From a virus: 36,507 bases of DNA. A program made the position numbers and the translations under genes. The notes below the pieces were generated by a model, which ran no database searches, was not told where the DNA came from, and worked only from the letters and a program-made list of their open reading frames with translations. Positions 2,400 through 36,507 of the stretch are shown here, one piece after another; the first letter of the stretch is position 1, and each line of letters starts with the position of its first letter. Location: the IMG/VR virus record IMGVR_UViG_3300018080_000077, positions 1-36,507 of that record; one strand, 5' to 3'.

Positions 2400-3051
2400 G
2401 ATTTTTCTCCAGTAGTTTTTTTATAGCCGAGAACTCTTTATTATGATTAGCAAGTTCTTTTAAAACAAGTATTACCCCTTCTATGTTTTCTATGTATTTT
2501 TTTGGATTAATGCCTTTTAAAAGTTCTAGTATAGACTCTACTTTTCTTGGAGAAAATAACCCTAGAATTTTTTTATCTTCTTCACTAAGTCGTTTGTCCA
2601 TTGTAATTACCTCTATTTCTATTTTTGGATTAAAAGAGTATTTTTTCACAAGACCAAGGGATGTTATCATCCTGTCATCCTTCCAAAGTATATCATTTCC
2701 TACGTCTAATATAAATTTTGCAAGATTATCTAAATCTGGTTTGCTTGAGTGATTTGGAATCCACAACAATGCCGTTTTTTTTGAAAGTGACAGGGTTTCT
2801 GGTATTGGCATGAAAAAGGTTAAGGTTACATACAAAGGCCCATTATATGGCAAATTAAAGTCCTTTTCGTCGATCTTGTTATTTTCGTCATATTTCAACA
2901 TCAAAATTTCGTTTCTCAATGATGCTTTGAAAAGTTCTTTTTCAAAAGTTTGCGGATCATAAGAATGTACTGCGTTTCCTTTAACAAACATTCTGTGTCT
3001 TTTTTTTGCAGTTGGTGGATGGTTTATTATTATCTTCACAGAAGGCCCCAT
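2389..3051 (-). CDS. rusA: RusA-like Holliday junction resolvase with a ~60-aa C-terminal extension
   Basis: PPTAKKRHRMF..., GPLYVTLTFFMPIP and SKPDLDNLAKFILDVGNDILWKDDRMI match the RusA pattern (P.pK.RpR / gPv.l.l.f / kPDlDNl.K.ilDal...DD). Confidence 0.65.
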   Translation of the reverse strand: MGPSVKIIINHPPTAKKRHRMFVKGNAVHSYDPQTFEKELFKASLRNEILMLKYDENNKIDEKDFNLPYNGPLYVTLTFFMPIPETLSLSKKTALLWIPNHSSKPDLDNLAKFILDVGNDILWKDDRMITSLGLVKKYSFNPKIEIEVITMDKRLSEEDKKILGLFSPRKVESILELLKGINPKKYIENIEGVILVLKELANHNKEFSAIKKLLEKNHGN

Positions 3052-4064
3052 TTTCTAAGCTCATGATCGAGCAGTGTTTTAAATCCTTTCTCCGAGAATT
3101 TTACTATCGCCATCTTACTAGACGTCGAGTTTTTATACCTGAACAATACCCCCTCTGGGCAAAGCTCTAAGACAACGCCCTTCTCCTTACACCGAACTAC
3201 CATGAAGTTTTCTACAATTTTTTTACCGTGCTCTTCGTTTGTTTCCGCATTTTGAGCGGCCGCTCTTTTTTTCTCTTTCTGTTCGTCTTCTACGACTGCA
3301 TCAATTACCCAACGCAATATCGATCGATAATCACTCTTTTTCCACTTGCTTTTCGGCGTGTCTTCCTTCCAAAGACTAAGTTTTTCATAACATTTGTTTG
3401 TGCGCTCTATACCAAATTTTTTAATAATCTTTTCGTGCTCTTCATCCGAAGTCTTTACGTGTTTTGCTCTTTCTTTCGTTGTAGCAGGAATAGTGATGGT
3501 TTTGTTTTTAGGGGCAATCCTTGTACAGCTGGGTTTTTCTTTGGGTTTTTTTAAAGATTTTTTAAGTGTGGGCGGTGAGTCCGAAGCCGAAGGCTTTGGA
3601 CGAGAGGAACCGTCAGGTTCCGGTTTTTTCTTTGGTATACCTTTAGGTATACTTTCTTTATTGTTATTACTTATATTATTATGGGGACCACTGAGTCCTT
3701 TCGAAGGGACTGTATGGTCCTTTCGAAGGGACCGTATGTTCCCTTCGTAATTAAAATTTGGATATATCTTCCTATCCCAAAGAACTCCGTTTTTCTTTGT
3801 TTCTTTTCTAACATATCCACGATCTTCTAACTTTTTTATTCTTCGTTTAACTTCTCTTGTGCAACATCTTGTCAATTCAGCAAGATATTTGTCTGAGGCG
3901 TAGCAATATCCTTTATTGCTCGAAAGTGACGCTATTCTTCCAAAAAGAATTGCCGTGCTATCATCGATTTCTGGGTCGTCTAAAATATGGCTTGGGATAA
4001 CAACAAAATAATTTGGCGAAATATTTTCATTTTTTTCTTGCTTAATAATTTCATGATTCATCAT
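3036..4064 (-). CDS. Replication initiator / replisome-organiser-like protein (N-terminal winged HTH)
   Basis: 342 aa, ATG with AGGAG SD. N-terminus FVVIPSHILDDPEIDDSTAILFGRIASLS...YCYASDKYLAELTRCCTREVKRRIKKLEDRGYV. Basic linker, then a C-terminal KSDYRSILRWVIDAV motif typical of phage DnaD/O-like organisers. Confidence 0.55.
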   Translation of the reverse strand: MMNHEIIKQEKNENISPNYFVVIPSHILDDPEIDDSTAILFGRIASLSSNKGYCYASDKYLAELTRCCTREVKRRIKKLEDRGYVRKETKKNGVLWDRKIYPNFNYEGNIRSLRKDHTVPSKGLSGPHNNISNNNKESIPKGIPKKKPEPDGSSRPKPSASDSPPTLKKSLKKPKEKPSCTRIAPKNKTITIPATTKERAKHVKTSDEEHEKIIKKFGIERTNKCYEKLSLWKEDTPKSKWKKSDYRSILRWVIDAVVEDEQKEKKRAAAQNAETNEEHGKKIVENFMVVRCKEKGVVLELCPEGVLFRYKNSTSSKMAIVKFSEKGFKTLLDHELRKWGLL

Positions 4065-4145: not shown

Positions 4146-4658
4146 CTAATAATCACAGGCTAAAAGTTTTCTCTTTAAAAAATCTATTGCCTCTTGTTTT
4201 GCAACTACCTTTTTTCTTCCAAAAGAATAAATTTTTATATTTGGATTTCTTTCAAACGGCAGTTCAAATCCTCTAAAAAGCTTTTTTAAATTTGTTATAC
4301 AAATAAAATTCGATTCGATACTTTTGTCTAGGTAATAAATTATTTCTTCTGGTGTGTATGTTTTTGGCCGTTTGCTCTCTTCTTTTATTTTCCACTTTCC
4401 ACTTTCGTTTTTTTCTATGTAATTACATCTTCTAAGGTCATTAAGAATGTTTGATATAGAGTCGATAGAAAGACCTAAAAAATCTTTTAGAGCTTCATAT
4501 GTTGACAAAAGATATCCATGTCTTTTGTATTGATCTATTAAAAGCAAATAAATTGCTTTGTGTCCGTCATGCAATCTTTCGTCTTCTTTTATTTCTTTTG
4601 GAAGTTTTTCGAAAAATGCTTGCGGTAAATTTGTATAAAGAGATAATATCTTACTCAT
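4146..4658 (-). CDS. Winged-helix DNA-binding protein (second initiator or regulator-like)
   Basis: 170 aa, ATG with AGGAG SD. AIYLLLIDQYKRHGYLLSTYEALKDFLGLSIDSISNILNDLRRCNYIEK looks like a wHTH. Confidence 0.45.
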   Translation of the reverse strand: MSKILSLYTNLPQAFFEKLPKEIKEDERLHDGHKAIYLLLIDQYKRHGYLLSTYEALKDFLGLSIDSISNILNDLRRCNYIEKNESGKWKIKEESKRPKTYTPEEIIYYLDKSIESNFICITNLKKLFRGFELPFERNPNIKIYSFGRKKVVAKQEAIDFLKRKLLACDY

Positions 4659-5379
4659 AGGAGCTCCTTTTGCTTTGCCTTTTGCTTTGCCTTTTGCTTT
4701 GCCTTTTGCTTTGCTTTTCGCTTTGCTTTTCGCTTTGCTTTTCGCTTTGCTTTGGCTTTGGCTTTGGTTTATCTTGGTTTTGATTTACCAGTTTACCTTT
4801 GTTTTGGTTGCCTTGGTTTTGATTTACCAGTTTACCTTGGTTTTGGTTTCCTTTAGTTACTTGGCTTCCTTTGGTTTGGCTTCCTTTGGTTGCTTGGTTT
4901 ATTTTTTGTGCTTGGCTTACTTTTGGTGCTTCTTGTTTAGTGCTTATTTTGCTCTCATTATTTGGATTATATTTGTGAGAACACCTAAAAAAACTCCTTT
5001 CACGGAGGCTCATCGTAGTAAGGCTTCTTGTTATAGGACCACTTGTTTTTCTATCGTCTGTTAGATTTATGAGGGTCTGCAAGGTTTCTTTTCCTACTTT
5101 GGTTTTTAGGTTTATAAGCATTTGTAAAGAATGTTTATTCAAGTTTTTTTCTAGTCCTTTAGGGTTTCTTAAATTGTTCATGCTTATCGGGCTAGAAAAT
5201 TTTTTAGCGATGCTGTAAAAGGTGTCGCTTTTTTTTTCTTGCGGCATCTGTGGATAAACCTCTAAATTGTTCATAACTAAAGTGATATCAGTTCTTTTAT
5301 TTTTTTTGCAGCCTTTTTTAGAATTTGCTTGAAAAAAAACGTACTTGCATTTAGAGTTTATTACGTCTGTGTCACACAA
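4651..5379 (-). CDS. Hypothetical protein with a repeat-built, basic, Q/K-rich C-terminal tail; start uncertain
   Basis: Track start is TTG; in-frame ATG at 5274. C-terminus: ...GKLVNQNQGNQNKGKLVNQNQDKPKPKPKQSEKQSEKQSEKQSKRQSKRQSKRQSKR. Confidence 0.5.
   Translation of the reverse strand: MCDTDVINSKCKYVFFQANSKKGCKKNKRTDITLVMNNLEVYPQMPQEKKSDTFYSIAKKFSSPISMNNLRNPKGLEKNLNKHSLQMLINLKTKVGKETLQTLINLTDDRKTSGPITRSLTTMSLRERSFFRCSHKYNPNNESKISTKQEAPKVSQAQKINQATKGSQTKGSQVTKGNQNQGKLVNQNQGNQNKGKLVNQNQDKPKPKPKQSEKQSEKQSEKQSKRQSKRQSKRQSKRSSYE
4666..4890. repeat. Nested tandem repeats inside a CDS
   Basis: (ccttttgctttg)x4 at 4666..4713; (cttttcgctttg)x3 at 4714..4749; (ctttgg)x3 at 4750..4767; a 27-mer at 4773..4799 repeated at 4812..4838; a 15-mer x2 at 4861..4890. 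Confidence 0.9.
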
Positions 5380-6398: not shown

Positions 6399-7256
6399 AT
6401 GAATTTACAACAAAACACCAAAGAATGGGAAAATTTTAGACGAATGAAAATAGGAGCATCAGATGCTCCTAGTATAATGGGAGTTGGGTTTCTTACTCCT
6501 TATAAATTGTGGAGGGTAAAGCTTGGCTTTGAAGAAGTAGAAAAAAACTGGGCAATGAAAAAGGGAAAAGAGTTGGAGCCTATTGCTAGAGATGCCTTTA
6601 TTAAAGAAACCGAAATTTTTGTTACCCCAAAAGTTGTTCAGCATAAAGAACTTGAGTGGATGATAGCAAGTTTAGACGGAATTTCTTTTGACGAAAAAAC
6701 AATAGTAGAAATAAAATGTGCAGGTAAGGATGATCATTCAAAGGCATTAAGTGGGATGGTGCCTGAGAAATATTATCCTCAATTACAACATCAAATGTAT
6801 GTTGTTGGACTTCAGTCAATGTATTATTATAGCTTTCACAACAATGAGGGATGTGTTGTGAAGGTTGAGAGGGATGATAAATACATAGACAGACTTTTAG
6901 AAAAAGAAGTTGAGTTTCTAAATTGTATGTTAGATTTTAGTCCTCCTGACATGATAGATAAAGATGTTGCTGTCTCTTATAAAAAAAGAGATGACGCAGA
7001 TTGGACGGATCTTGTTATTAATTACAAGGACTGTATTGAAAGAAAAAAACAAATAGAGAAAGAAGAGTCTTATTTAAAAAACCTTCTTATTAAAAGTGCC
7101 AATGGAGAGAATTGTGTAGGAAATGGGTTGAAATTAGAAAAAATTATTAGAAAAGGATCGGTTGATTATTCAAGCATTCCTGAATTAAATGGCGTTGATA
7201 TAGAAAAATATAGAAAAAAACATACTACATATTGGAAAGTTGGGTTTTTGGATTGA
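6399..7256 (+). CDS. YqaJ/lambda-Exo-like recombination exonuclease
   Basis: N-terminus QNTKEWENFRRMKIGASDAPSIMG, then ASLDG...VEIKC (PD-(D/E)xK type). GGAGG SD, directly downstream of erf. Confidence 0.8.
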   Translation: MNLQQNTKEWENFRRMKIGASDAPSIMGVGFLTPYKLWRVKLGFEEVEKNWAMKKGKELEPIARDAFIKETEIFVTPKVVQHKELEWMIASLDGISFDEKTIVEIKCAGKDDHSKALSGMVPEKYYPQLQHQMYVVGLQSMYYYSFHNNEGCVVKVERDDKYIDRLLEKEVEFLNCMLDFSPPDMIDKDVAVSYKKRDDADWTDLVINYKDCIERKKQIEKEESYLKNLLIKSANGENCVGNGLKLEKIIRKGSVDYSSIPELNGVDIEKYRKKHTTYWKVGFLD

Positions 7257-8156: not shown

Positions 8157-8185
8157 TTGTAAATTTTTTCAATGTTTGTTAAAAT
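8157..8185 (+). promoter_or_regulatory. Putative integrase promoter
   Basis: TTGTAA (8157..8162), 17 nt, TAAAAT (8180..8185), with TG at 8177..8178 (extended -10). It covers the track ATG at 8172, which argues for the ATG at 8217. Confidence 0.4.
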
Positions 8186-8216
8186 TTACCTTAAATTAAA
8201 TATATATAGTTTGGTT

Positions 8217-9212
8217 ATGAGCACATTACAAAAAACAGAATCTAAAAATATACAAACAACAGTATCTAAAAACAGACTCAAGGAAATAATAAGAACATAC
8301 ACTTCACCAAATACAAAAAGAGGGTTTAACTCAGACGTTAAAAATTTCCTTGCTTGGGCTCAAGTAACATATTTACAGGAGATAGAGTTTACTCAAGAAG
8401 TTATTATAAATTACATAATACAAGCCTTCGAAGGATTTCCAAAAGACATAGAGCAAATACTATTAGAACGCGGAGTAAAAAGACAGCCAGGACCAATAAA
8501 AGTTACAACAATAGAAAAAAGACTTAGAAATTTTGGAATATTTCTTGAGCTAAACGGTCGACCAAACCCAGTTAAAACGCCAGAAGTAAGAATGCTTATA
8601 AGAAGACTAAGACAAAACTTTCATGTTGGAAGAAAGAAAAATCCGATAACAAGAGAAATTTTAGATCAAATAATTGAACATAAATTTAAACCTAACGAAA
8701 AAAACATAAGAGATAGGGCAATTTTATTATTTGGATGGGGTTCTGGTGGGAGAAGGTCTCACGAAATATGTGATGTTAAATATGAAAATTTTGAACTACA
8801 ACCAAACGGTAACTATATATGTACTCTAGAAAAAACAAAAACAGGCAGAAATATGCGAGTTCCTGTTGGCGGCAGAGCAGCCAAAGCAATAAAAGACTGG
8901 ATTGCAATTAGAGGAACTAAACCTGGTTACATGTTTTTTCAAATGACATGCAATGGAGAATTAAAGGATAGAAAATTGACACAAGATGGCCTAAGAAATA
9001 TTATCAATAAAAGAATTGCAGCAATTGGACTAGATCCTGAGTACTATTCTCCAATATCAATAAGATCGGGATTTATCACAGAAGCTGGCAGGCAAAACAT
9101 GCCAGTAACAGAAGTTATGCAAATGACTACTCATAAGACAATGAGAGAAATGATGGAATATTATAGACACGGTTCCATGAATAATAATGTTTGCGTAAAT
9201 CTCGTTGGATAA
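8217..9212 (+). CDS. int: Tyrosine recombinase / phage integrase
   Basis: SAM-like N-terminal domain (TKRGFNSDVKNFLAWAQ). Catalytic-domain motifs GWGSGGRRSHEI, ISIRSGFITEA and THKTMREMMEYYRHG (R...R...H...Y). Alternative start at 8172. Confidence 0.85.
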   Translation: MSTLQKTESKNIQTTVSKNRLKEIIRTYTSPNTKRGFNSDVKNFLAWAQVTYLQEIEFTQEVIINYIIQAFEGFPKDIEQILLERGVKRQPGPIKVTTIEKRLRNFGIFLELNGRPNPVKTPEVRMLIRRLRQNFHVGRKKNPITREILDQIIEHKFKPNEKNIRDRAILLFGWGSGGRRSHEICDVKYENFELQPNGNYICTLEKTKTGRNMRVPVGGRAAKAIKDWIAIRGTKPGYMFFQMTCNGELKDRKLTQDGLRNIINKRIAAIGLDPEYYSPISIRSGFITEAGRQNMPVTEVMQMTTHKTMREMMEYYRHGSMNNNVCVNLVG

Positions 9213-9224
9213 AAAGGAGGAAAT

Positions 9225-9476
9225 ATGGAATGGTTTAAAGAGTTTGTCCATGTATTAACTTTTCTGGTGGCTAACTTTACAATTATATGGTGGTTTAGAA
9301 AAGAATCTAGAGAAGATTGGCTTAAAGTAGAAAAAGAATCAAAAGAGAACTGGCTGAGAGTAGAAAGAGAATCTAGAGAAAATAACATAAGAACTCAAAA
9401 CTTGATAGAAGCAATACACAAAGAAATGAAAGACTTTCACGAAAGGCTACTTAAGATAGAAGTGGAGAGAAAATAA
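9225..9476 (+). CDS. Small single-pass membrane protein, paralog of 10127..10312
   Basis: AGGAGG SD. MEWFKEFVHVLTFLVANFTIIWWFRKESREDW...MKDFHERLLKIEVERK. Shares the MEW start, the TM-WFR-ES-R-DW motif and the DFHERLLKIE end with the other copy. Confidence 0.65.
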   Translation: MEWFKEFVHVLTFLVANFTIIWWFRKESREDWLKVEKESKENWLRVERESRENNIRTQNLIEAIHKEMKDFHERLLKIEVERK

Positions 9477-9500
9477 TGGAAAGAAATAAAAAAAGCAGGC

Positions 9501-9743
9501 TCAAAAAGTCTTTGCAACGCTTCCCATTACACCACAAATTCTTCTTACCTCTTCACTTATAATTCTTCCTTCTTTCGTTATGTCGTCATCTATGTGTTTT
9601 AATGATTTATAAACCGCAGTAAAAACTTGTTTATTTGCAAAAAGTCTTACAAGTTTTTGCATTTCATCACTTTCAAATTCAAGCGACTCTTCTGGAATAC
9701 TTTCCAATATTCGACTGCTATATATACCACGAGTATGTTCCAT
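9501..9743 (-). CDS. Hypothetical acidic protein, last gene of the Cys-rich cassette
   Basis: 80 aa from the ATG at 9743 (track start 9752 is TTG). Starts 10 nt after the upstream stop. Confidence 0.45.
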   Translation of the reverse strand: MEHTRGIYSSRILESIPEESLEFESDEMQKLVRLFANKQVFTAVYKSLKHIDDDITKEGRIISEEVRRICGVMGSVAKTF

Positions 9744-9752
9744 TCTTCTCAA

Positions 9753-10130
9753 CTATTTAATTTTAATTATTTCTCTTTCTGTTAACACATCCTCTAAATC
9801 AAGGATTTCGCATCTCGCACATTTTTTGTGACAACAATCAGTTTCTTTATTTACACATTCTAATTCGTTTTCGAAATTCATGTAATGTCCGCAATGACAG
9901 CACTTCCAAAACATAAACTTACATCCTGCAAAGTATTTGTTTTTTGAAAATAATACTAATCTAAGAGGTATTTTTCTTTTATTAAATTTAAAAAAAATAC
10001 CGTTTTTCTTAATATTAATCTTTGATCCAGGAACTTCAACAAGATTGTTTAAGTCTAGATTAGTGTTTCCATTAAATCCAAAACAACTAAAAGACACGAT
10101 TATAAAAAAAACAAAAAGAAGTTTCTTCAT
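9753..10130 (-). CDS. Secreted Cys-rich protein, family member A
   Basis: Signal peptide MKKLLFVFFIIVSFSCFG. C-terminal WKCCHCG-x10-C-x6-CCHKKCARC. The ATG overlaps the upstream TGA (ATGA). Confidence 0.7.
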   Translation of the reverse strand: MKKLLFVFFIIVSFSCFGFNGNTNLDLNNLVEVPGSKINIKKNGIFFKFNKRKIPLRLVLFSKNKYFAGCKFMFWKCCHCGHYMNFENELECVNKETDCCHKKCARCEILDLEDVLTEREIIKIK

Positions 10131-10312
10131 TTTCTGTTCTCCTCTATCTTAAGTAATCTTTCATGAAAATCTCTTGATTCTTGATACCACATTTCTCTAA
10201 ATTGTTTAAATTCTTGGTCGGTCTGTCTCCAGTCGTTTCTTGATTCTGTTCTAAACCAGATAATCAACCCAGCATTAGCTAGAAATAAAAATAATACTTG
10301 CAGCCATTCCAC
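10127..10312 (-). CDS. Small single-pass membrane protein, paralog of 9225..9476
   Basis: GTG start overlaps the upstream TAG (TAGTG). MEWLQVLFLFLANAGLIIWFRTESRNDW...SRDFHERLLKIEENRK. Confidence 0.65.
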   Translation of the reverse strand: MEWLQVLFLFLANAGLIIWFRTESRNDWRQTDQEFKQFREMWYQESRDFHERLLKIEENRK

Positions 10313-10746
10313 TATTTTACCCCAACGTTATAATAATCAGTGCTTTTCCTTCCTTTGTACACCTGTATAAGCTTACAATTTCTACAACATTTGTGAGTAC
10401 ATTGTGTTTCTTGAATATTATCAGGAAGTTCAAATCCATTTTGACAATATTGGTCATAATCAACTTCAGTTAACCACCCACACTGACAACACTCCCAATA
10501 ATAATCAAATTTATTTTTAACACTTTCTAATGGAATTTTATAAAGTTTAGCTAAAAGACCTTCTTCGAAAAAAAATAAAATCCCGTCTTTTGTTTCTTGG
10601 CAGCAGCAAATATCTCCCTCGTCAGATTCTTTAATGAGTAAATTAAATTCATCTACTGTAGAGTTATCAAAGAACATAATTTCTTTTGCCTGAAGAAAGC
10701 AAAAAGAGCTTAAGAAAATGATGAACGATAAAACCAACTTTTTCAT
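10312..10746 (-). CDS. Secreted Cys-rich protein, family member B
   Basis: 144 aa from the ATG at 10746 with GGAGG SD. Signal peptide MKKLVLSFIIFLSSFCFLQA. WECCQCG-x10-C-x14-CTHKCCRNC. Confidence 0.7.
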   Translation of the reverse strand: MKKLVLSFIIFLSSFCFLQAKEIMFFDNSTVDEFNLLIKESDEGDICCCQETKDGILFFFEEGLLAKLYKIPLESVKNKFDYYWECCQCGWLTEVDYDQYCQNGFELPDNIQETQCTHKCCRNCKLIQVYKGRKSTDYYNVGVK

Positions 10747-10781
10747 AAAATAGCCTCCATTTTCAGTAATTATCATTGTTA

Positions 10782-10790
10782 ATTATAACA
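10782..10790 (-). promoter_or_regulatory. Extended -10 promoter element for the Cys-rich cassette
   Basis: The minus strand reads TGtTATAAT about 36 nt upstream of the ATG at 10746. It lies in the only sizeable intergenic gap of this block. Confidence 0.4.
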
Positions 10791-10824: not shown

Positions 10825-11064
10825 TTACTTAGAATCCATCTGTTTTCTACCCCAAACGACTATTCCGTTCATTGTTATTAATAGATATGCGGCGAACAGC
10901 ACTCCCTGGGATATTTCTCCAATAGCTAAATTATATGTTAGAAGGTATGTGTTTGTGATAATCCAAACAAAGAATCCATAAATGTTTTGTTTTGAATTTA
11001 AAAATGCTCCGTATAAAGCTAGAAAAACAACTAGCCAATTACAAATCCAAAAAAACCCGCTCAA
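10825..11064 (-). CDS. 3-TM membrane protein resembling a single PnuC (NMN_transporter) repeat
   Basis: No usable ATG. TTG at 11064 lies 7 nt after AAGGAG (11072..11077). ...SKQNIYGFFVWIITNTYLLTYNL...AAYLLITMNGIVVWGRK aligns by eye to the last three helices of H. influenzae PnuC (RKYVENWLLWVIINVISVV...FIALNGSRMW). Confidence 0.5.
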   Translation of the reverse strand: MSGFFWICNWLVVFLALYGAFLNSKQNIYGFFVWIITNTYLLTYNLAIGEISQGVLFAAYLLITMNGIVVWGRKQMDSK

Positions 11065-11578
11065 AATCAATCTCCTTGTTGAATATTTGTGACGTAAAAA
11101 CTTCTTTGTAGTAATTTACATCTATATGTGAAAAAAAATCTTCAAATAATTTGTCGATGGAGTTTTGGAAAATATCTTCACAATCTCGCACTCCATCTGA
11201 GATTAAAGGCATGTCAGGACGCACAAAAAAGAAATAGTCATAACTTTCAAGCCATTCTTCGGATGCTATTCTAAAATGATTTATTGGATTTTTTTTTAGT
11301 CTGAAAAAATCAGCATAAATAAATGTGTCAAAACAACTTCTATCACAAATAATAGTTGTATAACCCTGTTGTCGTGCTGTTAATTCTTTGTTTATTTGGC
11401 TAGTAAAGGCCCATATCGCTGTGTTTTCACTCATTTCATCATTTATTGGAAAACAAGATTCCCTCACTCTTTCGTGAATCACATATACGTTTTGTGCATT
11501 TCTTTTATAATATTCAGCGATTTGATATGTTAATGTACTTTTTCCGGCGCCATGCGTCCCACAACATGCTATTTTCAT
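11039..11578 (-). CDS. AAA_28-family P-loop protein (NadR-type ribosylnicotinamide kinase-like)
   Basis: Walker A CCGTHGAGKSTL, Walker B-like TTIICDRS, and YDYFFFVRPDMPLISDGVRDCEDIF, matching the AAA_28/NadR kinase pattern (yDlvfll.pd.pwv.DGvR). Confidence 0.7.
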   Translation of the reverse strand: MKIACCGTHGAGKSTLTYQIAEYYKRNAQNVYVIHERVRESCFPINDEMSENTAIWAFTSQINKELTARQQGYTTIICDRSCFDTFIYADFFRLKKNPINHFRIASEEWLESYDYFFFVRPDMPLISDGVRDCEDIFQNSIDKLFEDFFSHIDVNYYKEVFTSQIFNKEIDFERVFLDL

Positions 11579-11715
11579 TTTTTTTGCGCAGTAATGTCTT
11601 GTTGTGTATGAGCCTCTAATTGATATCCATATACGTCAGCCTCTAAGTCGCTATCATAATGGAAGCCACATCCACTTAAAACAGATAAAAGAACTATTAA
11701 ACAAAATTTCTTCAT
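11575..11715 (-). CDS. Mini-lipoprotein (46 aa), absent from the ORF track
   Basis: My translation: MKKFCLIVLLSVLSGCGFHYDSDLEADVYGYQLEAHTQQDITAQKK. Classic lipobox LSGC. The start overlaps the upstream TAA (TAATG) and the stop overlaps the kinase ATG (ATGA). Confidence 0.55.
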   Translation of the reverse strand: MKKFCLIVLLSVLSGCGFHYDSDLEADVYGYQLEAHTQQDITAQKK

Positions 11716-11903
11716 TACCCATACCTCTTATTTTTTTCTGGTGTAGATGGAGTTAAATCAACATCCCATCCAGTTTGGTTTTCTATTTGCTTTTCCAAAA
11801 GCTCCTCAGCAAAGTTGTCGTCTTTTAAACCAAGTTTATTATTTACTAAACTACATCCGCAAAAACAAACTGTAATAAAAAATAATGCTATTAATATTTT
11901 CAT
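11715..11903 (-). CDS. Small lipoprotein (62 aa)
   Basis: Start re-set to the ATG at 11903 with GGAG SD. MKILIALFFITVCFCGCSLVNN... has a signal peptide and a lipobox-like FCGC. The longer track ORF would overlap the upstream gene by 89 nt. Confidence 0.5.
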   Translation of the reverse strand: MKILIALFFITVCFCGCSLVNNKLGLKDDNFAEELLEKQIENQTGWDVDLTPSTPEKNKRYG

Positions 11904-12185: not shown

Positions 12186-13994
12186 CTAAGCCTCCGTTCT
12201 TGGTTTATATAAGCCACTTAAACGCCACAACGATTCATTAGCTGTTATATCTGTATTTAACAGCTCTCCAGATGCTCCAGCAACTGCATCTGAATAAACG
12301 AATTTACAGTAATTATTTCCGTTTCCAATATCAACCGTTCCAACATAAATTATTTTATCATTTGCTCCTACATTTGATGCGTTTCCTTCTCCAGATATTG
12401 ATGAGTTAAAAACTCTATATGGGGCGTCATCACTTTCAAATGGAGTGACAAGCTCAGCCTGTACTGCTCCAACTCCGTTTGTAGTGCATGTATCGCTATA
12501 GTAATCTACATACACAGCTCCTGTAGTTGTAACTTGATAATAATAATTTGTATTTGTGAAAATAGGTGCGGTTCCTCCTACTGGCCTCCAGTGTGTATTT
12601 GCTGATGCTCCAAAAATTCCAAGTGGTATTTTAAACATTCTATATTCTTGAAATTGTCCAATCCCATCTTCTTGATCTATTGTCTGTACAGTCCAATCGC
12701 CACCAGCCGTTGTTAGTCTCATTCTAAAAGAACCTATATTTAAGCATGGATTATTATCATAGTCTGTTAACGTTGGATCCGATAATGCAAACATTGAATA
12801 AGAACTGTCTGCGTTTGCAGACCCTGTTTTTCCCATTACAGCTGCTGAACAAGATTTTCTAAGATTACACAGCCTAGATATCATAAAAGAAATGGCATCT
12901 TCAGCATCATTTAAAACTGCATATAAGAAAAACGGAACATCATCAGATGTAGTAGTATCTGCAGCTTGAAAACCAAAAAGATTTCCTATAATCGTACTAG
13001 CTCCACTATCGTCTATAAATGTTTGATTTGCAGTTACTTGAACTGTTACTAATTGACCAGGACTTGCACTACTATAAATTGTTACATATCCAGGACTAGA
13101 CGCAGAAAGAGCTGTTCCATCAGATCCATGCACAGTAAAAGTACTTCCGCTATAAGAAAAACCTATATTTGAAACGCCAACACTATCTCTTGCAGCTATT
13201 GTTATAGATCCTGCTCCATTCGTTATTTCTATTCCATTTCCTTCTGTTAAAGTAGCAGCTGCTGGAGCATTTCCAGTATCTCCAATAACAAGTTGTCCAT
13301 CAGTTAATGGACCAAGCTCATTAACTGTTGTATTTGCTCCTGCACCATATAAAAGAGTATTTGCAGTTGCTTGAACATTTAAAGTAAGTGTATTTGCTAC
13401 AGTTCCGTCAGAAAAAACACTTGTTCCAGTTACATCAATATTTCCAGTTCCATCAGGTGCAACTGGTCCAGCAACATCAGTAGTAAAAGAATCTACAGCC
13501 AATCCACCTCCAGCCAAAGAAACTCTTCCGTTGGCGTCTACTGCAAAATGTGCGTTGTTATAAGAACTAAGGCCGGCATCGTTTATATCAGATGCTCCTG
13601 TTGCTGAAGCAACTTGAATATCTATATCTAAAGTATTAGCTACATCTGCTCTAGTATATAGTGGTTGTGCATGCGTTCCAGAGGCTACAACATTACCGTT
13701 TATATCTATTGTTCCTACATTAGGATATGCAATATTTCCATCCTCAGCTCTTAAATCAGTAATAGTACCAAATCCACCTCCAGTGAACTTTCTCCATTGC
13801 GCATCTCCATTGATAACGTCAACTAAAATCCATTCATCATTAGTAGTATTATCTCTCCAAATAGACTGAATTGGTTGTTTTCTATCCAATATCGTTGGAG
13901 CTCTAGGAGCATCAATTGTTGGAATTACAGCAGTTTTTTGACCAGCATACTCTAGCGGATCTTTTTGTATAGGACGAAGTCCAAACTGTGCCAT
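12186..13994 (-). CDS. Tail fibre protein
   Basis: 602 aa, G/T/A/N-rich beta repeats. Module LTDGQLVIGDTGNAPAAATLTEGNGIEITNGAGSITIA is shared with 14369..16468. The N-terminal P.T..D...W...W.L....W motif is shared with 17340..19925. Confidence 0.75.
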   Translation of the reverse strand: MAQFGLRPIQKDPLEYAGQKTAVIPTIDAPRAPTILDRKQPIQSIWRDNTTNDEWILVDVINGDAQWRKFTGGGFGTITDLRAEDGNIAYPNVGTIDINGNVVASGTHAQPLYTRADVANTLDIDIQVASATGASDINDAGLSSYNNAHFAVDANGRVSLAGGGLAVDSFTTDVAGPVAPDGTGNIDVTGTSVFSDGTVANTLTLNVQATANTLLYGAGANTTVNELGPLTDGQLVIGDTGNAPAAATLTEGNGIEITNGAGSITIAARDSVGVSNIGFSYSGSTFTVHGSDGTALSASSPGYVTIYSSASPGQLVTVQVTANQTFIDDSGASTIIGNLFGFQAADTTTSDDVPFFLYAVLNDAEDAISFMISRLCNLRKSCSAAVMGKTGSANADSSYSMFALSDPTLTDYDNNPCLNIGSFRMRLTTAGGDWTVQTIDQEDGIGQFQEYRMFKIPLGIFGASANTHWRPVGGTAPIFTNTNYYYQVTTTGAVYVDYYSDTCTTNGVGAVQAELVTPFESDDAPYRVFNSSISGEGNASNVGANDKIIYVGTVDIGNGNNYCKFVYSDAVAGASGELLNTDITANESLWRLSGLYKPRTEA

Positions 13995-35357: not shown

Positions 35358-35392
35358 GACATTCTTAAATAATAAAAATTGGAGGATTTATT

Positions 35393-35719
35393 ATGAAAAA
35401 ACTACTTTCTTCTCATTTGTTTCTTTTATTAGCGTTGTTTTTTAGTTTTTCAACACTATATGGTGTGTGTAATACTTGTGAATCCAGTTCACACGCGTGT
35501 TTAAAAGACGCACTTACAGTAGAAACAGAAAGCGGTACAATAAAAATAAACGCAAATGCAGTTATAAATGGACGCGTTATACAGTATTTCTGGGTATGCT
35601 GTAGATGTGGATTTTACAATAGATACTTCGACCAACCATGTGCTAGACGATTAGAAGAAAATCCTGGATATTGCGATCATAGAATTTGCAATTACTGCGT
35701 TATAAAAAGCATACAATAG
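35393..35719 (+). CDS. Secreted Cys-rich protein, family member C
   Basis: Signal peptide MKKLLSSHLFLLLALFFSFSTLYG. WVCCRCG-x9-C-x10-CDHRICNYC. Confidence 0.7.
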   Translation: MKKLLSSHLFLLLALFFSFSTLYGVCNTCESSSHACLKDALTVETESGTIKINANAVINGRVIQYFWVCCRCGFYNRYFDQPCARRLEENPGYCDHRICNYCVIKSIQ

Positions 35720-36277: not shown

Positions 36278-36481
36278 ATGAAAACATTTTTAATATATAT
36301 ATTAATAGTCTTTTCAGGATTTCAATATTATAAAACAAAGAACTATAGCGAAAGGATACGGCAGCTTGAGGAAAGAGCCTATCAATGTGAAGCGGGTGTT
36401 TACTGTACAAAGTCTGCTGTTTTAGACTTGGCAAAAAATTTAAGTAAAGAAGGTGTTATTAAATATTACTTAGGAGACTAA
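36278..36481 (+). CDS. Small signal-anchor/secreted protein
   Basis: 67 aa from the ATG at 36278 with GGAGG SD at 7-nt spacing: MKTFLIYILIVFSGFQYYKTKNY... The 3' end lies inside the terminal repeat and interlocks with the terS stop. Confidence 0.55.
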   Translation: MKTFLIYILIVFSGFQYYKTKNYSERIRQLEERAYQCEAGVYCTKSAVLDLAKNLSKEGVIKYYLGD

Positions 36482-36507
36482 CCTACTGTGGCACATTCTT
36501 CTTCATC
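36385..36507. repeat. Terminal direct repeat, copy 2 (identical to 1..123)
   Basis: 123/123 identity with the window start. Confidence 0.97.

Follow-up and report, generated by a model that had tools for sequence, protein, structure and literature searches.

The window analysed here is a 36,507-nucleotide (nt) stretch of viral DNA, the whole of IMG/VR record IMGVR_UViG_3300018080_000077, and our subject is three small cysteine-rich proteins encoded in it, named B, A and C. The genes for B and A belong to a cassette of four on the minus strand, together with the genes for a small transmembrane (TM) protein, TM1, and for a protein of 80 amino acids (aa). The gene for C stands apart on the plus strand. 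The features at the two places are as follows:

10312..10746, minus strand: Cys-rich protein B, 144 aa, with a predicted signal peptide, an N-terminal part containing a CCC triplet, predicted β-strands and a C-terminal knot of seven cysteines and one histidine (Cys7His knot)
10127..10312, minus strand: TM1, 61 aa, GTG start, with a single predicted TM segment in its N-terminal part and a tail that is helical and charged (..WFRxESRxDW..DFHERLLKIE..)
9753..10130, minus strand: Cys-rich protein A, 125 aa, with a lipoprotein-type signal (VSFS-C16), a basic mature part and the Cys7His knot (motif at 9810-9908)
9501..9743, minus strand: the 80-aa protein, without a signal peptide, isoelectric point 5.7
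10782..10790, minus strand: extended -10-like motif TGTTATAAT, a candidate promoter element about 35 nt upstream of the start of B, in a 78-nt gap
35393..35719, plus strand: Cys-rich protein C, 108 aa, with a predicted signal peptide, an N-terminal C-x2-C-x4-H-x-C and the Cys7His knot (motif at 35591-35698)

The four open reading frames (ORFs) of the cassette are coupled in the manner described in an earlier note on this DNA. The start codon of TM1 shares one base with the TAG stop of B (TAGTG), the start of A overlaps the stop of TM1 (ATGA), and a 9-nt gap separates A from the gene for the 80-aa protein. That last protein had been called acidic and is so, but only mildly. Independent gene callers predicted the four genes alike in every public contig that carries them, and they also chose the 144-aa start of B. 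A GGAGG stands 7 nt upstream of B (10754-10758) and another 7 nt upstream of C (35381-35385), and a GAGGAG lies 8 nt upstream of A, the gene with the lowest GC content of the set (26.5%). The Cys motif of B occupies 10375-10497. The gene for C stands by itself, with the terminase genes on one side and a tRNA-Gly gene on the other; it lies on the strand opposite to its neighbours, is convergent with tRNA-Gly and is, by orientation alone, an independent transcription unit.

B, A and C carry in their C-terminal parts the invariant pattern W-x-C-C-x-C-G-x(9,10)-C-x(6,14)-C-x-H-[KR]-x-C-x-x-C, a module in which eight residues of ligand type (7 Cys, 1 His) are invariant. When the six-frame translation of the window was searched with the pattern as a regular expression, there were exactly three matches, B, A and C themselves. 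The three proteins align over their mature parts, and their earlier description as paralogs is borne out by significant BLASTP matches between B and A (E 2e-8, full length) and between B and C (E 3e-4, partial). Neither B, A and C nor TM1 and the 80-aa protein matched any family in Pfam, PHROGs, NCBIfam or PADLOC. The known defence and exclusion families (PADLOC; the PHROG families Sie, Llp, Cor and Ltp) gave no profile match for these proteins, for TM2, the paralog of TM1 (see below), or for the additional member described next.

A word-indexed search of 5.8 billion clusters returned only B, A and C. The earlier note had proposed scanning with a hidden Markov model (HMM) built from the copies; an exhaustive scan of this kind over 1.84 billion representatives yielded one true further member, P0005, a protein of 135 aa that scored E 5e-8 against a profile built without it. 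Another candidate from the same scan, P0004 (662 aa, nine matched stretches), proved repetitive and non-homologous and was rejected. No members beyond P0005 were found among GenBank phages, IMG/VR contigs, 185k species genomes (GTDB) and JGI metagenome contigs. The impression that the family is new, formed from the letters of the window alone, is thus upheld by the absence of matches in the four HMM libraries and in these collections. P0005 is closest to B (BLASTP E 4e-12, full length) and also matches C (E 1e-9). It has a signal-peptide-like N-terminus and the Cys pattern in unchanged form; since P0005 was found independently, the exact pattern defines a family.

P0005 is encoded on a 4.4-kb contig of ∼40% GC from the same sampling project (locus L008, positions 439-2443 and 2781-3188). 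Its gene is flanked by an IS607-like pair, a serine recombinase and TnpB, on one side and by SelU and a NIF3-like gene on the other, and its context is chromosomal. No TM-type gene or other partner gene is present at this locus. The metagenome concerned, 3300017963, is credited to D. Valentine, and we take its project to be the one on Salton Sea hypersaline sediment, an anoxic hypersaline setting. P0005 might point to the lineage of the host, or to where the phage copies came from. B, A, C and P0005 constitute a family of small proteins, exported by prediction, that is extremely rare and had not been described before.

The prediction of export is drawn from the N-termini. These begin with MKK in B, A and C and with MKAHK in P0005, and an uncharged stretch of 15-18 residues follows. 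A basic n-region and a hydrophobic h-region, as expected of a Sec or lipoprotein signal, are therefore recognisable in all four members, in agreement with the Sec-type signal peptides that had been proposed for the three phage proteins. B has a plausible signal-peptidase I site, with predicted cleavage between LQA and KE, and VSFS-C16 of A satisfies the lipobox rule of PROSITE (PS51257). The cleavage sites predicted for C and P0005 are less clear. By the positive-inside rule, the positive N-terminal tip predicts that the C-terminal part, which includes the knot, lies outside the cytoplasm.

The TM protein of the cassette has a second copy just outside it and many relatives elsewhere, and these bear on the composition of the cassette:

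9225..9476, plus strand: TM2, an 83-aa paralog of TM1, 12 nt downstream of a recombinase gene and convergent with the cassette
8172..9212: the recombinase gene, Xer-like tyrosine recombinase
L013 5711-7097, L015 5995-6407, L017 64-288 and 6965-7377: TM-family arrays in three other loci

TM1 and TM2 are 52% identical in a MAFFT alignment (BLASTP E 7e-8). A 61-nt inverted repeat (9421-9481 and 10122-10182, 75% complementary) consists of 3'-terminal sequence from both TM genes and brackets A and the gene for the 80-aa protein. With both proteins as queries, at least 133 clusters were returned. Their members are 55-97 aa long and share an invariant W..R.E.R.D...F-H.R-L signature, and many of them are encoded on phage-sized contigs of 33-40 kb. 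There are four copies in L013, two in L015 and three in L017, often in tandem or convergent, and the contexts vary from tail genes to early genes or the end of the late operon. A likeness of TM to PspB (Pfam E 0.0026) was found in only 1 of 56 family members and was dismissed as chance. Across the whole family an acidic N-terminal tip precedes the TM segment and Arg and Lys follow it, from which the positive-inside rule predicts an N-out, C-in topology with a cytoplasmic tail of ∼40 residues.

The Cys pattern was absent from nine loci that carry TM-family genes (L011-L019, L025-L027). One of these, L017, is syntenic with the window: a fiber gene is followed by an 86-aa gene, then by a small lipoprotein gene (55% identity) and then by a TM chain. 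B and A are absent from it, and so is any other Cys-rich gene. From L017 and the TM contexts elsewhere, we infer that TM is a backbone or independent family and that B and A are accessory insertions around it, consistent with the placement among morons (accessory phage genes) suggested earlier. No relative of the 80-aa protein was found in any fetched locus. The idea of a single four-gene system, put forward in the earlier note, is weakened by these comparisons: the TM family, with at least 133 clusters, is independent and had no Cys-rich partner in the nine loci, a second TM copy lies outside the cassette, and C and P0005 are solitary. TM1 and the 80-aa protein are probably co-transcribed neighbours of the Cys-rich genes and not obligate partners.

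The same comparisons bear on the notion that the Cys-rich proteins are secreted bacteriocin-like toxins or inter-bacterial effectors, for which TM1 (for B) and the 80-aa protein (for A) would provide immunity. This notion would suit proteins that are small, Cys-rich and, by prediction, Sec-dependent, diverged paralogs of which B and A are each followed by a small non-exported gene, and a chromosomal homolog, P0005, that adjoins a mobile element. We nevertheless hold it to be very unlikely, given that the TM family is widespread without a Cys-rich partner, that no candidate immunity gene lies downstream of C or P0005, and that no likeness to a known toxin or bacteriocin family was found in Pfam, PHROGs, NCBIfam or PADLOC.

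The ends of the window, 1-123 and 36385-36507, are identical (100% over 123 nt), and the window is therefore the complete genome of a phage, circular or terminally redundant and 36,384 bp long. Genes recognised in it include those for a portal, a major head protein, a large terminase and tail and fiber proteins of a tailed phage, for the recombination proteins ERF, YqaJ and a RusA-like resolvase besides the Xer-like recombinase, and for DnaD/O-like replication proteins and a ParB-like nuclease. The source of the Cys-rich genes is probably a temperate phage, sampled in lake-sediment metagenomes. Nearly all late genes are on the minus strand, from about 35346 down to 9501, and the cassette forms the distal end of this late array, beside the recombinase gene and after the tail fibers and two small lipoproteins:

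11575-11715 and 11715-11903, minus strand: two canonical lipoproteins of very small size whose genes follow directly on those for the tail fibers, with lipoboxes LSGC and FCGC and mature parts of ∼30 and ∼45 aa

The second of these lipoproteins (11715..11903) is the one kept in L017, just upstream of the TM chain. The canonical lipoboxes indicate that the host uses lipoboxes, and the strong GGAGG ribosome-binding sites argue that it does not belong to the Bacteroidota. The best identity to a GenBank phage is ≤24%, to podoviruses of Proteobacteria; 11 kb of the window gave no match to phages by megablast, and the TM protein and B gave none in GenBank phages. The portal protein had no match in the genome collection. 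None of the contigs carrying the recombinase or B has host flanks or is longer than the genome.

That the cassette closes the late structural operon brings lysis to mind. TM1 could be a holin or i-spanin-like protein, A its outer-membrane lipoprotein partner in an overlapped, spanin-style pair, and B an antiholin-like periplasmic regulator, the three together governing the disruption of the envelope when infection ends. An ATGA overlap joins the genes for TM1 and A, and protein A has a lipobox. In the λ Rz/Rz1 spanins, similarly, the gene for an inner-membrane protein runs into that for a Cys-containing lipoprotein, and the pair closes a late operon. No endolysin, holin or spanin was recognisable with PHROGs and Pfam in any ORF of ≥90 aa, so that the lysis genes must be among the genes without assignment. 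The predicted N-out, C-in topology of TM1 is, however, the opposite of that of an i-spanin, a type II (N-in, C-out) protein with a long periplasmic coiled coil, and the tail of TM1 would comprise only ∼40 residues. A is large and Cys-knotted compared with the short, proline-rich o-spanin, no holin or endolysin gene adjoins the pair, and TM-family genes form tandem arrays without lipoproteins. In six distinct phage contexts, no recognisable endolysin lies within 6-7 kb of a TM-family gene, and some copies lie among early genes. In syntenic relatives the TM chain comes with no Cys-rich gene. Both C and the chromosomal P0005 are solitary. The T4 RI-type antiholins are likewise small exported periplasmic phage proteins encoded near a small membrane protein, but there is no similarity, and TM1 has essentially no periplasmic domain to bind. 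With no endolysin recognisable in the genome or adjoining the TM genes of other phages, the lysis role gains no support, and we consider it unlikely.

What the knot resembles was approached through known metal-binding modules. RING fingers have the ligand order C-x2-C-x(9-39)-C-x(1-3)-H-x(2-3)-C-x2-C-x(4-48)-C-x2-C, with eight metal ligands. The resemblance to RING and treble-clef domains pointed out in the earlier note stands as far as ligand positions 1-6, which can be mapped: the RING of TRAF6, for example, shares C-x-H-[KR]-x-C-x-x-C followed by hydrophobic residues, and the upstream C-x2-C is at a permitted distance. It goes no further. The C7-x2-C8 pair is absent, with no conserved Cys after 'C6' in B, A and P0005; ligands 7 and 8 cannot be supplied because C ends 6 residues after 'C6'. 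The knot has extra invariant Cys instead, namely the second C of CC and one in the middle of the loop. In an hmmsearch of the profile against the PDB, the RINGs of TRAF6 and RING2 matched insignificantly (E 0.05-6; TRAF6 at 0.05-0.4) and over C-x-H-x2-C-x2-C only, and hhalign against six RINGs gave 29% over 21 columns on CxHxxCxxC. The Pfam RING models gave no match even at E ≤10. The module here follows a predicted signal peptide and a β-meander and is not in a cytoplasmic E3 context. RING membership was rejected on ligands 7 and 8, profile similarity and context.

The proteins could still be RING-like zinc fingers of the cytoplasm or membrane if the hydrophobic N-terminus were an anchor, or if they were delivered onward as RING-type effectors. 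The formal fit to ligands 1-6 and the weak TRAF6 matches speak for this; the positive N-terminal tip, which predicts an outside C-terminus, the missing ligands, the profile results and the lack of a fold match (see below) make it extremely improbable.

The other end of the knot recalls rubredoxins and zinc ribbons. There a β-strand ends in W-x-C-x-x-C-G-aromatic, which corresponds to the second knuckle of rubredoxin (WVCPxCG), and the terminal C-x-x-C could provide the other knuckle. In the knot, however, three further invariant Cys and the His lie between the knuckles, export is predicted, and there is no match to a Pfam rubredoxin or zinc-ribbon model. The remaining matches of the profile in the PDB, rubrerythrin and rubredoxin, came at E 0.6-4 (insignificant) over W-x-C-x-x-C-G, and hhalign with a small rubredoxin alignment gave a probability of 40% over 13 columns, covering the first knuckle WxCxxCG only.

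These likenesses lead to two proposals on metal. In one, binding of Zn, Fe or Cu by Cys7His would itself be the function, in periplasmic sequestration, delivery or redox chemistry. Exactly eight invariant ligand-type residues including one His, the resemblance to rubredoxin and RING knuckles, further Cys and His clusters in the N-terminal parts of C and P0005, and the sediment setting of the samples are all compatible with such handling. It is quite unlikely all the same: an exported protein that carries its cofactor would be expected to have a Tat signal, and none is present, all the motif matches are statistically insignificant, and the divergence of the N-terminal parts suits target recognition and not conserved chemistry. 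The other proposal concerns structure. The eight ligand-type residues would suffice for two tetrahedral sites, and both ends, CCxCG and the terminal CxxC, resemble metal knuckles; this is the argument for a metal knot. The Cys7His knot might then be a new Sec-exported binuclear metal module, which would combine a rubredoxin-type knuckle with a RING-type C-x-H-x2-C-x2-C half, fold around a pair of metal ions once outside the cytoplasm of its anaerobic host and have been triplicated by the phage as a scaffold for envelope-targeting proteins. We put this forward as a speculation, doubtful as it stands.

We favour, tentatively and with a probability of roughly 0.4, the reading that B, A and C are moron-type accessory proteins, exported by prediction and acting at the cell envelope. 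It fits best because of the accessory distribution, the export signals, the divergent N-terminal parts on a conserved scaffold, the position at the border of late operon and lysogeny region, and the solitary copies. From the N-terminus onwards, every member consists of a predicted Sec-type signal, which in A is of the lipoprotein kind, 30-60 residues that diverge between members, a short predicted β-meander and, at the end, the knot of ∼40 residues. The proteins would owe their expression to read-through of the late operon, possibly also to promoters of their own, and be exported unfolded through Sec. Outside the cytoplasm the knot would fold into a compact, stable scaffold by means of either two tetrahedral metal sites or disulfides, the two-metal option being plausible in a host from anoxic sediment. 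The scaffold would present the variable N-terminal part to an envelope target, and in the infected or lysogenic cell the protein would most likely mask or modify a surface or periplasmic component, resulting in superinfection exclusion or lysogenic conversion, with the paralogs aimed at different targets.

Moron-type proteins are known for superinfection exclusion and lysogenic conversion (PMC3594210, PMC3952083). With Llp of T5, Cor of φ80 and N15 and Ltp of Streptococcus thermophilus phage TP-J34, and with the morons of these two papers, the present proteins have in common that they are small, phage-encoded, exported or lipidated (here by prediction) and accessory, are missing from close relatives, lie at the borders of modules near the lysogeny region and may have transcription signals of their own. 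They differ in showing no sequence relationship to Llp, Cor or Ltp, as judged by the PHROG profiles, and the Cys7His knot and the three paralogs in one genome have no counterpart there.

Several observations weigh against this reading or its particulars. Export is predicted from sequence rules, and the translational coupling of B, TM1 and A makes a functional link with the TM protein possible. The independent promoter of the earlier note is questionable. The motif is present and well placed, but TGNTATAAT, the extended -10 motif, occurs once in the window, while 2.9 matches are expected by chance, and the -35 region is poor. No intrinsic terminator was found after the cassette (z = -0.75) or between the cassette and the upstream genes, so that independent expression is no likelier than read-through from the late operon. 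As for the knot, metal sites of the Cys4 type are uncommon outside the cytoplasm. The mature proteins contain 11, 9-10, 10 and 10 Cys across the four members, numbers that also allow an all-disulfide knot; considering these counts and the predicted signal peptides, disulfides are allowed equally with metal. Structure prediction gave limited help. An AlphaFold2 model of the C domain with four meander strands, Cys loops and a last strand after the final CxxC reached a predicted local distance difference test score (pLDDT) of 72, but only one of five models was that good, and the model of full-length B (pLDDT 50.7) was unusable. The Foldseek comparison suggested earlier was run on the trimmed C-domain model and gave no match with E <2.8 in the PDB or BFVD. 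Finally, the phage contig copies are 99.95-100% identical, with zero differences in the cassette, and there is no variation from which selection could be read.

Gene A presents a further peculiarity. Four contigs, from JGI 3300017992, JGI 3300028895, ENA ERZ27256790 and Logan SRR6963491, end exactly at 10003. In JGI 3300017992 another contig starts at 10009, and the two overlap by 7 nt (AGAAAAA on the minus strand, codons K41-N43 of A). The junction 10003-10009 falls where the variable N-terminal half of A gives way to the conserved C-terminal half, ∼800 bp from the recombinase gene. Other assemblies run through it unbroken, and three assemblies break at 7047, inside the YqaJ gene. These ends could mark a recombination junction (perhaps attP), a physical end, a mosaic boundary or a coverage gap in a shared set of reads from very AT-rich DNA. 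The four assemblies may share one read set, and a coverage gap is therefore at least as likely as a recombination core. It is a possibility that A carries a site-specific recombination junction at 10003-10009 and that the gene is split or re-assorted on integration. Inversion would require a second copy of the junction sequence, and none was found with ≤3 mismatches over 21 nt. Near-matches of 13 nt occur twice on the plus strand; they produce no sensible gene fusions and were dismissed as partners.

Other features of the genome were observed in passing. Inside the replication-initiator gene (3036..4064), a 22-nt unit occurs twice in tandem at 3695-3738 and possibly represents origin iterons, and an array of 12-nt repeats (4654-4778) lies at the start of the ORF 4651..5379. 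An Rfam scan identified tRNA only. Upstream of the cassette, an 81-aa ORF with three TM segments (10825-11070, minus strand) is similar to the NMN transporter PnuC, but to its last third only (Pfam E 0.03; PHROG 35408 E 3e-4) and overlaps the end of a gene for a NadR-like AAA_28 kinase (11039-11578, minus strand). Both are absent from L017; they could be a 'half-PnuC' and an accessory pair for NAD salvage. The 602-aa fiber (12186-13994) shares segments of 32-44% identity with fibers of the TM-family contigs L025, L015 and L017, and the shared segments suggest that phages on related hosts exchange fiber modules.

Accessory phage genes for exported proteins are among the chief means through which prophages alter the surface, resistance and virulence of their hosts, and most of them are orphans. 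The family described here is unusual among them in its eight perfectly conserved ligand-type residues, its three copies in a 36-kb genome and its single other member in ∼15 billion public proteins. The TM family, with at least 133 clusters often arranged in tandem, represents a widespread uncharacterised phage membrane protein. The present value of these observations is descriptive; a knot that binds metal would be a rare Cys-based metal site outside the cytoplasm and a compact new scaffold, and a disulfide knot would be a new small and stable fold.

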